The notes under the pieces were generated by a model. The model saw only the letters and a list, made by a program, of their open reading frames with translations, was not told where the DNA came from and did no database searches. The position numbers and the translations under genes are program-made. Shown here one piece after another: positions 6,413-56,030 of a DNA stretch of 64,000 nucleotides (the first letter of the stretch is position 1; each line of letters starts with the position of its first letter). This stretch comes from Eledone cirrhosa (lineage: Eukaryota), in assembly GCA_964016885.1 (NCBI GenBank), contig OZ024742.1:188542001-188606000 (forward strand). Direction: 5' to 3'.

Positions 6413-6574
6413 ATAGGAACGAGTAGGACCCCGACGGCTGAGCTCAAGCCGTTTCGACGGCTTGAGCTCAGCCGTCGGGGTCCTACTCGTTCCTATTACC
6501 CACTCTACTACACTAAGTATTGAGTACTTTGGTGCTTTATGGTCCATCTGGTTCCTTACCACATTTCCTTCGTT
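6413..6574 (+). mobile_element. Family A short palindromic insert in (TA)n (PLE pLTR-like 3' end plus inverted copy)
   Basis: Perfect 40-bp inverted repeat 6413-6452/6457-6496 around TTCG, then a unique tail ending TTCCTTCGTT-(TA)n. Five copies in the window. Confidence 0.85.
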
Positions 6575-8024
6575 ATATATATTTATATATATATATATAT
6601 ATATATATATATATATATATATATATATATATATATATATATATATATATATATATATATATGTATATAAATACATACACACACATATATATCTATATAT
6701 ATTTGTTGTTTTGTTGTATTTAAAAGACACGGTTCTTCTTGTATGCTGGAGGTTGTGGTTATAGTCTTTGCCATTTAAACGTGTAAGGGATTCAGCTAGA
6801 ACGTTTGATAAAATGCCAATTGTTTCTAAGTGCAGATTCTGTACTGCAGAACTTTAAATATATCTTTAAGTGGTATTTCGTATTTCATTGTGAAGTAGAT
6901 GGTCTAATTTATGTGTACTAACATTTACAATGTACATACACTTTACTCCTCCCCACCGCACACACTCATACACATATATAGACCGATACAACCACACGCA
7001 CATACACATATATGTAAATGTAATGTTACTAGTTAAAGCTAGTAAGATCATTTTTCAACTCAATTCTCTTTATTTAATGAAAGAAATGTAGATATTGAAG
7101 GATGGGATGCTAGTCTGAGAGTTTTAAACCGATTAAACATGACTGTTGGGTATCTCATTCTATGATATATAGAGAGAATTACAACTAAGAAAAGGAGTCA
7201 ATACGTGACAATGAAAGAAATTGGGATTATATATGGTTATGTAGAAACACTCTTTCATTGAGAATTAGAGAAGCTTCTATGTTGTGCTTGATTTATGTTT
7301 AGTCTCAGGTCAGTACATATTGAGGATACGTGATCAACTATAGTCCAGCTGTTACCGTCTGATATTTCTACACAGCGAAAGTCGGGCAATATAATCGAAC
7401 ATGTACGCACATTTTGAAGTTTATATATATGTATATAAATATCAAGTTTAAAAAAATTCAATAATTCGAAGTCCGTGGTTAATGCATAGATAATCTGAAG
7501 CTGGTCCGAAGAGTATAAATATAGAGGACCAGGTTATCCAGTAGATTTCCATATTTGAAGTAAGAAGAATGCCGCTCTGATGTTGGGTTTGGATAGTTTT
7601 TAGGATTCCCCAGTTCAGCGGCCTGTACGTTAAAGAAAATTGTTATATTACAACAATAAAGGCTGAACAGAGAACCCATTTTTAACAAACAATAATTTGT
7701 ACAACAATAATGGAAATTCTAAGTAACAGAAAATACATAAATCACATTGTTAGAGCCTCAGAGTATACAATATTTTTTGTTTGGCCCTCCAGAGCAAAGA
7801 TGAAGAGATTGTTTGGCGAGCTCACCCTGGAGCATCCTACATACAATTGTCAATGGGAGAAGTATGGTTTTCCCAGATGAAGGCCAGCCACTTTTATGTT
7901 TTGACCCTGAGCTTTCTTGATGGTAATCGCTAAGCTTAGTCGTATTGGAAACTGAAGTCGCTTAACATGTCCATAGCTGGCGAATGATTACAAGTCTGGT
8001 TCCTGGGATGGCCCGATGGCGACG

Positions 8025-8160
8025 TATCGCTTGTGAATCTGCATCTCCAATGAAATAGATTTACAAACACTTGTGGTCTTCGTCGGCCAGAGGTAGGATA
8101 TTTCCAATCGTGTGGTACACTTGGCCCTGTACTTTAAATGTGGCCATGTATCCGTGCTTT
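8025..8160 (-). pseudogene. Helitron Rep/Helicase fragment
   Basis: GYMATFKVQGQVYHTIGNILPLADEDHKCL*IYFIGDADSQ matches the Helitron motif FK(V/I)QGQVYHxIGSLLP...LQIYF. Confidence 0.75.
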
Positions 8161-9294
8161 CGTGAAATAAATAGGTTTTTGTTTTTGTGTATGAAAAAAT
8201 ATCTGTACACGAATATATATATTAAGATAACAGATAAAATTTTAAGCAAAGAATCGCTGCTTTCACCCTTAACGGGATCTTCTGAAACTAAAAAAAATCA
8301 ATCTGTGAACGCAGAAGAAATATTTCGAAAAACGTTATCGGATGCAGACAGCAGACATACACAGACATATTATAAGGGCGCGACGTCATAGCTACGTATC
8401 TATGTAAAACGACAAACTAAGAAAAAGTGAGGAATGTCGCGTAGCCGTAAGTTTTGACATTATATATATATATTTATATATATATATATATATATATATA
8501 TATATATATATATATATATATATATATATATATATATATATATATATATATATATATATGTATATATATATACACATGTATATACATACATACATATATA
8601 TATATATATATATATATACATACATACATACATATATATATATATATATATATATATATATATATATATATATATATATATATATATATATATATATATA
8701 TACATATATATATATATATAAACAAACATTGTCTTCTATGAGTTTAATCTCTCGTTTGTTTCACTTTATCACTCAGGTCATGACAGCACACTTACAAAAT
8801 AACAGTTCATCTTTATATATTATTCTTACACTTCTTAATATCATAGCTACTCACAACCATTTGTATTTCCTATAAAGACGGATATTACTAGAAATGTCAT
8901 ACTTGTACACAGCACATTGACTTCACTAGATTTGATCATTTATATAACGTGTCTGTCTAAATTTGTTTGACTGTAACAATCTTTCTGTACATTCACATAA
9001 TCGCCCTTATAGTCAAACACATATGCACACACACATCTATATACATATGTATGCGTATGCGTGTGTTTATATATGTATGTTCATAATTACTTATATATAT
9101 ACACACATATACACACATTCATACACACATATATACACACACATATATATACATACATACACACACATACATATATATATATATATATATATATATATAT
9201 ATATATATATATATATATATATATATATATATATATATATATATATATATATATATATATATATATACACATATATATATATATATATATATAT

Positions 9295-54354: not shown

Positions 54355-54794
54355 TGAAGATTACGGTATCTGTATTTCAAATCACACCAAGATTCAAATC
54401 TCTCGGCAATTCCCGCGAATATTCAATTTACGTTTCACCTTTTTCGCGTCAAGAAAGTAGAGAAACAGCCCAGGGTGGTAGACAAGCGGAATTATCAGAG
54501 TTGTACCAGATGATCTGCCCTATTTGTTTCATTTTCTCTCGCCCAATGTTCAAACGCCAACGTGGCTCGTTAGAAAATAAATTTAAGTCTACGCCCAGTT
54601 TTACACCACCACCTGAGTGTTGGGCACTTTTAAAAGAGTCCAATCTTTTGTTAGAAGTTGAGCCAGGTTTTCCGTTACAGGATGCCTTTCTCTTGAAGTG
54701 GAGTCATGGGCTCAACATTTCCCCTCTCGGTCTAAGCAGTAAAATCAAGAATACAATGAATAAGAGTAATATATTAATATATTTGGTAAAATAA
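54355..54794 (+). CDS. Candidate exon / unassigned 146-codon ORF
   Basis: Non-repetitive and GC-richer; TTTTTCTGTTTTAG acceptor immediately upstream (phase 1). Product not recognised. Confidence 0.25.
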
Positions 54795-55670
54795 GAACAA
54801 AACCAAAACGAAACACCTGTCGCAGTATAATATCATACTTATTAGAGGAGACCAGCTTGACACAACCATCATACTCCATTTTCTTTCTCTATTGAAACCG
54901 AAAGCAGGGGTCTTAACCTCGAAACAATATTGAAATATAGAGGTAAATTCGTAAACAGTTGTTTTGTTTTATGATGAATACACCACGATGTTGACCCTTA
55001 ATAGGCAGGGATTATAGGCGAAATTTATAGTAATATAAGCAGGATTTCATATTTAAATAATCTTATAGAATTCAATATTATTATTGTACTAATATATTCT
55101 CAAAAGATTTGAAGAATTATGAAATTAAACTGACATAGACCTCACATAGTACTCCATGTAAGTAGGTTTATCCAACAATAAAATATTCAGTCCGCCTACG
55201 ACGATAATGGCCTCTTATGGAACTTCATCGTGAATAAAAGATTATTTGTCTTCTATCTGCTTTATTTCTACAGACATTAGAGTGAACTATCTCTCTCATG
55301 ATTAACTGGAACTCGTAAAAAGATTACCTGTTGTCTATCGACAGTCAAAAATCTACGGCAATCTCCTCCACTTTAGTTTGATATATTTAAGTACTTTGAC
55401 CTTCCTACTCAACTATGCCCCTTGCGATAACAAACGTTAAGAATGATCAATGCAGCTATTATCTAACTTATATTTCTTTGCTGTCTTCTATCTCTATGGC
55501 TTTAATGTTATCGTTAACGACAGATTTGTGTTTTAATGACGGGGAAACAAGAAAAGGAAATGTTCATTGAATAACAAACATACATGTTCCTAATTACAGT
55601 AAAGAAACAACTACAAGTCTCTATGTATGTACGCTTGTGTACGTACGTATGTATATATATATATATACAT

Positions 55671-56030
55671 ATATAGAAATTACATGAATCAAATTTCTGT
55701 TTAAATCATTTATTTGCTTACAATTGTATGTAAATTGCCATGCTATATTATTATAATGGATGTCAACCCACTGTGCGTCAATATATACATATGTTTCTAT
55801 ATGTCTCTTGTGTTGGAAAGGAGGTCAAGTATGTAAAAAATCACTGAATAATTGCTCCTAAGACTCCAAACCTCGGTTTGGAAGAAACAATTGTAAGCAA
55901 ATAAAAGATTTAAACAGAACTTTGATTCATGTAATTTCTATATAACTGCTCTGTAAAACAACTGATGTTGTTACATTGAGCTATTTATCTTACTGGTAAT
56001 AAGGTAGTAATAAATTACTGTCTTTCACTA
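55671..56030 (+). mobile_element. HHR-bearing insert with 57-bp inverted arm
   Basis: Arms 55671-55727/55887-55943; same family as 20586-20775. Confidence 0.78.
55852..55900 (+). ncRNA. Hammerhead motif, CUGA box decayed (CCTAAGA)
   Basis: TTGCT-CCTAAGA-CTCCAAAC-CTCG-GTTTGGAA-GAAA-CAATTG-TA-AGCAA. Confidence 0.6.

Follow-up and report, generated by a model that had tools for sequence, protein, structure and literature searches.

Head-to-head insertions of Penelope-like elements in Eledone cirrhosa probably arise by two-strand priming at two fixed sites, with joints that likely favour a transcription start over hammerhead helices

We consider it likely, from comparison of genomic copies, that the head-to-head insertions of Penelope-like elements (PLEs) in Eledone cirrhosa are products of paired priming. 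Reverse transcription would be primed by both nicked strands of a (TA)n target and begin at two fixed sites within the element, on probably one RNA; both cDNAs would likely run off the capped RNA 5' end and then be joined via short complementarity, of which hammerhead helices may be an occasional source only. In the DNA itself we observed two classes of 3' end, one of each per inversion, together with a sharp 5' stop, microhomology at the joints and concordant arms. The stretch studied, hereafter the window, comprises 64,000 nucleotides (assembly GCA_964016885.1, contig OZ024742.1, 188,542,001 to 188,606,000, forward strand) and contains 14 head-to-head insertions of Hydra-type PLEs in (TA)n. 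The ten inverted structures cited in the original prediction are all present, with arm identities of 93-100% in the nine pairs measured.

Junction coordinates were mapped on natural long copies, with 0 at the ribozyme cleavage site, and arm ends were called by BLAST against one natural copy per family. The genomic sample combined the 30 closest hits for each of families A to H with by-catch and 1 Mb of unselected DNA; from it, 165 junctions were used for breakpoint statistics and 196 inverted pairs for the classes of 3' end. Rate tests covered seven families; family F, with one usable pair only, was excluded, and its apparent stops near -160 fall in low-complexity sequence. An assembly artefact was rejected on internal grounds, namely an average arm divergence of 3-7%, unlike 3' ends and varied joints. 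Among the contigs and RAD-seq reads placed over 17652-18130, none spanned the joint; both the reads that begin at 17812 and the loose ends at 17710 probably reflect restriction ends from the library.

Table 1 Insertions and related features in the window (positions are those of the window; arm ends are relative to the ribozyme cleavage site).
Feature	Positions	Strand	Arms, junction and remarks
Family A stub	6416..6573	+	Short arm minus 6416-6462, long-tail arm plus 6457-6573; ends -30/-20; joint is a 6-nt inverted repeat common to stems II and III
Family A stub	9296..9485	-	Long arm minus, short arm plus; centre 9430, coinciding with the putative start in the stem II loop
Family B stub	9575..9790	+	Short arm minus to -58, long arm plus from -44; junction ~9655
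Family C stub	17652..18142	+	Short arm minus ends -113 (putative start, plus overlap); long arm plus from -97, beginning inside the CUGAUGA box
Family D 2-kb inversion	23276..25438	-	Centre 24397; ~1 kb upstream of both ribozymes
Family A stub	25475..25660	+	Ends -35/-39
Family I inversion	26404..26730	+	Centre 26550; no parent mapping; ~110 nt from a hammerhead-like GAAA (by eye)
Family D endonuclease remnant	27637..28098	+	CxCX5C linker, then GIY-YIG-like motif, without internal CCHH; upstream of the family D ribozyme at 29090
Family A stub	41072..41247	-	Ends -32/-32
Family E insertion, arms non-overlapping	41380..41642	-	Junction 41590, ends +99/-167; short arm (minus) reaches the putative +1 (-167), with G before it; long arm (plus) is the last 50 nt of the tail only
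Family A stub	45661..45858	-	Ends -51/-36
Family F insertion	46077..46322	+	Long arm minus stops at stem I (0 to +9); short arm plus from -76
Family H inversion	48830..49401	-	Centre 49166, ends -198/-175, upstream of both ribozymes
Family H pLTR promoter, putative	49221..49251	+	TATA box 49221; initiator-like +1 A 49251, the stop position of most family H arms genome-wide
Family E inversion	49418..49862	+	Long arm minus ends in the CUGAAGA box (-40); short arm plus from the putative +1 (49608), with slipped repeats of the first bases at its start
Family G inversion	55676..56104	+	Short arm minus ends in the stem III palindrome (-9); long arm plus from -172

Judged by their endonuclease motifs and (TA)n insertion, the elements appear to be EN+ PLEs of Hydra type. 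GIY-YIG endonuclease motifs lie at the end of the ORF upstream of the 3' pLTR in families A, C and D, and inspection of these translations against the published Hydra-clade description found a CxCX5C linker and no CCHH in the endonuclease. A Pfam GIY-YIG match of the family D remnant reached E=0.021, below the cut-off, and the Pfam search of two endonuclease fragments gave no match. No telomerase-like reverse transcriptase (RT) was found in frame with these families in eight long loci (7-kb fetches), a search for longer homologues was empty, and the eight 7-kb stretches around long copies contained no full or partial tandem pLTR-ORF-pLTR copies. Core boxes of a predicted type I hammerhead, with stems I, II and III or a palindromic stem III, are present in all eight reference copies, two of whose cores are variant or decayed; an Rfam scan gave no hammerhead among the matches listed (150 of 233), which were microsatellite-driven.

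The 3' ends are bimodal in all eight families, that is, each family has two alternative ends that differ by a tail, and TA lies within 30 nt of 341 of the 369 arm 3' ends. An inverted 5'-truncated copy is present at the 5' end in 122 of the 230 elements selected by their tail and in 25 of the 73 unselected ones. As the original prediction had proposed for priming from both target strands, 168 of 196 inverted pairs combine one long with one short 3' end; its claim that the arms overlap in sequence also held, with a median overlap of 61 nt and one of 10 nt or less in just 17 of 165 pairs. Long-arm ends also gather at the short start site (9 in a 10-nt bin, 2-5 in its neighbours), and since this cluster is weak it was kept out of the main evidence.

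At the other end of the arms, 5' ends cluster 3-40-fold at a single site per family in six of the seven families tested, and this site, not the ribozyme helices, is the true hot spot of breakpoints. Stops per 1000 nt in the start window and in the ribozyme were, respectively, 104 vs 8.7 (A), 75 vs 4.7 (D), 65 vs 1.7 (E), 80 vs 6.3 (H), 16 vs 2.6 (C) and 20 vs 5.8 (B). The start windows were chosen on tail-selected copies and then tested in unselected copies, where the stop fell inside them in 60/91 (A), 8/9 (H), 7/10 (E), 6/15 (D) and 4/11 (B) cases, and in 1/4 for family C, for which there were four cases only. Family A ends range from -41 to -57, the family B cluster (-82 to -68) is diffuse and adjoins an inverted repeat, and families G and F have no start-like stop.

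The stops likely mark the capped start of pLTR transcription, because the sites bear initiator-like motifs, a TATA-like box lies about 30 nt upstream in the read-through copies of three families (A 38/45, C 23/26, H 8/9) and an extra G is often present. The box is absent from families B, D and E. A G precedes 19 of 28 exact +1 stops and 49 of 235 stops elsewhere (p=8e-7); this excess comes from families A (13/14) and H (4/4) and is non-significant outside family A (6/14 vs 29/115, p=0.20), and many of the extra Gs of family A could come from the partner arm instead. Could the sharp stop instead be a block to reverse transcription, an RNA processing site or the trace of later deletions at palindrome centres? 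The family A stop does lie at the base of a 6-bp hairpin inside stem II, and the D and E stops lie within a 6-nt palindrome able to seal the joint. However, arms with an asymmetric partner also stop there, as do solo copies joined to TA, the enzyme gets through stronger helices on its way, and the TATA spacing and G excess match a capped start, so that we regard this alternative as highly improbable. The start in family A would then simply happen to fall within the stem II loop.

The original prediction placed the joints on hammerhead helices, which would guide them, with ribozyme dimerisation keeping two RNA templates together. In each of its ten structures one or both arm ends do fall in the ribozyme footprint. 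But the footprint spans 55-117 nt and most stubs measure only 60-220 nt, and with two ends to every junction such hits are expected; genome-wide, 46 of 109 junctions outside family A have an end within it, without enrichment in rate. Five of the centres that were assigned to a hairpin just 5' of GAAA (6453, 9430, 25525, 41199 and 45800) belong to family A, and since their stubs contain neither the CUGA box nor the natural stem II 5' arm, that hairpin is a product of the inversion. More generally, a hairpin adjoining GAAA in a stub of this kind can look like a ribozyme helix and yet be a product of the inversion. At 17811, 49607, 55727 and 46201 one end is indeed in the ribozyme, but the other lies at -116, -167, -172 and -76, respectively. 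The family B junction given as 9634 is actually near 9655, and four head-to-head junctions, all off the ribozyme, had been omitted (24397, 49166, 41590 and 26550).

In the enrichment test that the original prediction had put forward, stems II and III outside family A received 48 stops in 9083 nt (5.3 per 1000 nt), and the sequence compared with them 48 stops in 7658 nt (6.3 per 1000 nt; p=0.41). What speaks for guidance by the ribozyme is that all 56 family A joints have an end in its footprint, that 3 of the 20 joints of family G, located at different loci and lacking common rare alleles, restore the natural stem II in register, that isolated cases involve stem III or stem II in family D and in the G copy of the window, and that minimal PLE hammerheads have been proposed to act as dimers (PMC4209133). 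Yet the family G hot spot was not repeated in unselected copies (0/11), a non-ribozyme hairpin at -424 in family G yields the same type of joint, the D, E and H stops cluster 50-120 nt away from the core, and Naiad PLEs are described as making inverted copies without canonical hammerheads (PMC8557442). Family A, moreover, has a full stem III and stubs that are unable to fold a hammerhead, yet it inverts often (18 of 39 unselected copies), and arms behave as though read from a single template, which goes against dimers as suppliers of paired templates. Hammerhead guidance as the main route is largely refuted and now very unlikely, and neither ribozyme guidance nor dimer-supplied templates are supported.

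Of the original prediction, twin priming, the overlap of the arms and their joining by complementarity hold up. At the joints, complementarity of at least 3 nt was found in 54 of 94 insertion-free joints, compared with 28% in a shuffled null, with ribozyme helices an occasional source only. The absence of a pre-formed, MITE-like master was also confirmed: there are 48 distinct end pairs among the 56 family A joints, 26 among 29 in D and 18 among 20 in G, and groups with identical junctions have no rare alleles in common. A palindromic master was rejected on these grounds.

Whether the two arms come from one RNA can be judged from their concordance. Arms of the same insertion are discordant at few subfamily sites (A 24/607, D 5/180, E 2/77), whereas different elements differ at 36-52% of them, and passage beyond the stop involved both arms in 5 pairs, one in 2 and neither in 48 (p=1e-5). 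Because the arms have common subfamily alleles and pass the stop jointly, twin priming on a single RNA is favoured. Concordance would also be expected from two same-locus RNAs or from later arm-to-arm conversion, and twin priming with a protein dimer that keeps two such RNAs together, or the two pLTR copies within a single tandem mRNA, would account for overlap without strand displacement; in line with it, the PLE protein is predicted to dimerise (PMC11167929). Independent templates, however, fail to predict the joint passage, the tendency of the short arm to reach further in overlapping pairs (56 vs 22, p=1.5e-4), the long partner arm in 12 of 15 upstream-selected family A copies or the correlated arm lengths of family G (rho 0.64, p=0.002), and we consider the two-template version unlikely. 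Fold-back self-priming was proposed from the junction palindromes of rotifer PLEs (PMC3846280); in this scheme a single cDNA, or an antisense RNA, would fold over at a hairpin and serve as its own template. It would yield perfectly concordant arms and palindromic joints, in agreement with those joints of G that restore stem II in register and with the symmetric ones of A and D. But the short-ended arm extends further 5' in 73 of 165 pairs, with the tail on the other arm alone, and 17 of 165 pairs have no overlap. Since a copy cannot outgrow its template, fold-back is excluded for the asymmetric pairs; it may account for some of the 70 symmetric ones, and as a general explanation it carries very little probability. 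In the preferred single-RNA reading, the inner, short-site enzyme would lead and the outer enzyme would follow, displacing the cDNA of the first, which would make the arms overlap, let the short arm tend to extend further and leave a minority of joints abutting.

The origin of PLE inverted repeats and one-sided tails is named as an open problem in Craig et al. 2021 (PMC8557442), and Frangieh et al. 2024 (PMC11167929) leave the later insertion steps unvalidated. The pattern described here makes two sharp predictions, namely same-template arms and capped RNA starts at the putative +1 positions, which relative to the cleavage site are -41 (A), -113 (C), -126 (D), -167 (E) and -103 (H). It is conceivable, at a chance that we put slightly below even, that two-site paired priming is the normal PLE route, with a protein dimer reading one RNA twice and a strong-stop-like cDNA pair ending at the pLTR cap as the commonest product. 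If so, a single step would account for the tail and the inverted pLTR as well as for the large numbers of short palindromes that bear a hammerhead, and pLTR promoters could be mapped from genome sequence alone.

Retroviral minus-strand strong-stop DNA is likewise a short cDNA, primed internally near the RNA 5' end and ending at the cap. The products here differ in being target-primed, paired and integrated as a dead-end palindrome, with no tRNA primer or strand transfer shown. L1 twin priming (PMC2912911, PMC11702581) is alike in its two primers on one RNA, its microhomology-joined cDNAs and the cap-derived extra G at full-length 5' ends. In L1, however, the second primer anneals variably and breakpoints lie ~1-10 nt apart, whereas here the two cDNAs begin at fixed sites, poly(A) priming is absent and the arms overlap (median 61 nt); of the L1-type features, microhomology at the joint is present and non-overlapping arms are confined to the 17 of 165 pairs. 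EN+ PLEs, in the available portions of Craig et al. 2021 (PMC8557442) and Arkhipova et al. 2013 (PMC3846280), share the inverted 5'-truncated copy, the tail at one end, palindromes at the joint, the pLTR hammerhead, TATA- and initiator-like pLTR motifs and AT-rich targets; their tails measure 30-40 nt, against ~80-175 nt here, and in those portions the mechanism is left open (self-priming or endonuclease resolution) and joints are not mapped to a transcription start. The Hydra clade (PMC8557442), as described there, shares the C-terminal GIY-YIG, CxCX5C without CCHH, (TA)n and the hammerhead; an RT-bearing copy was not recovered here, and the likeness is one of endonuclease, target and hammerhead. 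The protein of the Anolis PLE Poseidon nicks and extends both strands in vitro, starting at two RNA sites that bound the tail, with ribozyme activity dispensable (Frangieh et al. 2024, PMC11167929); its start sites are a short tail apart, unlike those here, and the available part of that account does not address head-to-head products, one versus two RNAs or cDNA end points. The genomic pattern ties this two-site, two-strand result in vitro to inverted copies.

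Self-comparison of the window, which lies in a 3.0-Gb, (TA)n-rich genome, revealed 14 head-to-head structures, each between TA runs, that fall into nine families (A-I) of Penelope-like elements (PLEs). The 30 closest matches to the 3' tail were taken for each of eight families (A-H), together with a further 60 family A loci chosen by other criteria and 1 Mb of DNA as an unselected sample. Arms were located by BLAST, chained and paired, giving 770 elements (711 without duplicates). Positions were read off a single natural long copy for each family and count from the ribozyme cleavage site, which is set to 0. 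Rate tests omitted the window copies and the separately sought family A copies; allele and cap tests included both. Family F contributed one usable inverted pair. Six near-identical family F copies (G000:C12 17.04-17.44 Mb), with about 60 kb or more between them and flanks in common, probably represent a tandem segmental duplication.

Outside these families, a separate TA-flanked repeat family occurs at window 45878-46039, 46362-46494, 58332-58382 and 58921-59126, and is interrupted at 45661-46322, where family A and family F have inserted. Tandem arrays rich in CCA/AAC occupy long tracts at 30300-36300 and 43875-45094 and show higher-order periods of 27-113 bp. An open reading frame of 423 codons (409-1680, minus strand) that weakly matches a zinc knuckle (E=0.18) is possibly a gag-like or ORF1-like remnant.

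In the inverted insertions a long and a short 3' end, each at a fixed site, lie on opposite strands, the 5' stop is characteristic of the family, and the arms are concordant. Two 3' ends were found in each of the eight families examined, and 168 of 196 inverted pairs combine one long and one short 3' end (the remainder being long+long 7, short+short 3 and untyped 18), which supports the original prediction of priming from both strands. The overlap of the arms seen originally was likewise upheld, with a median of 61 nt and an overlap of 10 nt or less in just 17/165 pairs. Fold-back was rejected for 73/165 pairs, in which the short-ended arm reaches further 5' and the other arm has the tail.

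At subfamily sites the arms of a family A pair were discordant in 24/607 comparisons, against 36% between elements; the values were 5/180 in D, 2/77 in E and 1/20 in G, and H offers no such sites. This concordance, together with 153 private variants common to both arms of pairs, excludes templates from different loci, later conversion aside. Two RNAs from one locus would also yield concordant arms, but we favour one RNA, because the short arm reaches further in 56 versus 22 overlapping pairs, the stop is passed jointly (by both arms in 5 pairs, one in 2, neither in 48), the partner arm is also long in 12/15 upstream-selected family A copies, and arm lengths are correlated in G (rho 0.64); A, C and H have no such correlation. 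Each arm of the 2-kb inversion of family D carries a 79-bp tandem duplication (window 23794-23956 and 24846-25007), which was therefore either in the template or copied from arm to arm.

In six families, 5' arm ends pile up at a specific site, and 85/144 joints have at least one end in this stop window. Windows picked on tail-selected copies were confirmed in unselected copies of A (60/91), H (8/9), E (7/10), D (6/15) and B (4/11); the count was 1/4 in C and 0/11 in G.

Family-specific 5' stops and rates of arm ends
Family	5' stop (nt from cleavage site)	Stops per 1000 nt at stop	Stops per 1000 nt in ribozyme
A	-41	104	8.7
B	~-82 to -68	20	5.8
C	-113	16	2.6
D	-126	75	4.7
E	-167	65	1.7
H	-103	80	6.3

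The modal stop base is A preceded by two pyrimidines, a context that resembles an initiator motif, with a count that is partly by construction. Read-through copies carry a TATA-like box about 30 nt upstream of the stop in A (38/45), C (23/26) and H (8/9); none was found there in B, D or E. A G directly precedes 19/28 arms ending exactly at the stop versus 49/235 elsewhere (p=8e-7). Families A and H carry this excess; with A removed p is 0.20, and some of the family A Gs are explicable as partner-arm sequence. A reverse-transcribed cap is described as the source of such an extra G in L1 and SVA (PMC2912911), and the Penelope promoter has been placed in the pLTR (PMC2377424). From these sequence features we infer that pLTR transcripts probably begin, with a cap, at the stop. 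In family A this start would lie in the stem II loop, so that the template would lack half of the ribozyme. In long family A copies (L034, L052 and others) the putative TATA box shares bases with the 5' strand of stem II, and one sequence would thus act as both promoter and ribozyme helix. Joints often contain short tandem re-copies of the first post-stop bases (window 49608-49643; family A loci L005, L013 and L062), as if on reaching the end of its template the enzyme had slipped back and primed again, and some family A joints contain runs of T.

The original prediction placed the junctions on hammerhead helices. All ten inverted structures it cited exist, each with at least one end within the hammerhead footprint, but helix placement does not hold as a general rule. 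Family A accounts for five of the ten. The ribozyme of its parent combines a U3-A8-type core with a stem II of 55 nt; in the window copies the core and the 5' strand of stem II are missing, so the hairpin reported there is the inversion itself. Junctions of C, E, F and G have the partner end outside the ribozyme, and four junctions omitted from the prediction (24397, 26550, 41590 and 49166) lie off it. The family C hammerhead (window 17652-18142) has an unusually long stem II of 81 nt.

Among inverted-junction arms outside family A and the stop window, ends were not enriched in stems II/III (48 per 9083 nt at risk versus 48 per 7658 nt of non-ribozyme sequence, p=0.41), nor with family B also dropped (38 per 7746 versus 42 per 7585). 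Joints close with microhomology or small insertions: 54/94 insertion-free joints overlap by at least 3 nt, versus 28% of shuffled joints, which agrees with the proposed joining by complementarity, and 60/165 joints carry insertions of at least 2 nt. True-helix joints do occur, with stem II rebuilt in register in 3/20 family G joints at independent loci; this hot spot was seen in 0/11 unselected G arms, and the same kind of joint also formed at a non-ribozyme hairpin. Ribozyme catalysis is described as dispensable in vitro (PMC11167929), and Naiad elements as inverting without canonical hammerheads (PMC8557442). Twin priming, overlap and complementarity joining are retained from the original interpretation, whereas ribozyme guidance and dimer-fed templates are not, and it is unlikely that most inversions arise in that way. 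In the likelier route, both target nicks would prime reverse transcription on one RNA, the outer enzyme would follow by displacement, both enzymes would run off the template at the cap, and host end joining would close the gap.

PLEs are well known to have truncated pLTRs in inverted orientation, tails and palindromes at their junctions (PMC3846280, PMC8557442), and a 2014 paper remarked on hammerheads on opposite strands at spacings of 100-700 bp (PMC4209133). In the literature covered, which is main text and thin for subscription and older Penelope work, we found no study that relates the inversion joints of PLEs to the site where transcription starts, or that tests one versus two templates. 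Twin priming ended at the start site may be a new twist on known PLE inversions, on which the supplements of PMC11167929 and PMC8557442 may bear, and the pattern makes the mechanism of these inversions accessible to testing. Long copies of A, C and D have upstream endonuclease remnants with a CxCX5C linker and a GIY-YIG-like motif (Pfam E=0.021, below the cut-off) but no internal CCHH; reverse transcriptase was not recovered from eight long loci or by a longer-homologue search. Long copies extending to the endonuclease region (L402, L404, L406, L408) are head-to-head inversions of 1.5-3.5 kb too. Judged against the description in Craig et al. 2021 (PMC8557442), the (TA)n targets, hammerheads and endonuclease remnants fit the Hydra clade of PLEs. 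The two 3' ends, one each per pair, match the two reverse transcription start sites and the extension on two strands described for a PLE in vitro (PMC11167929).
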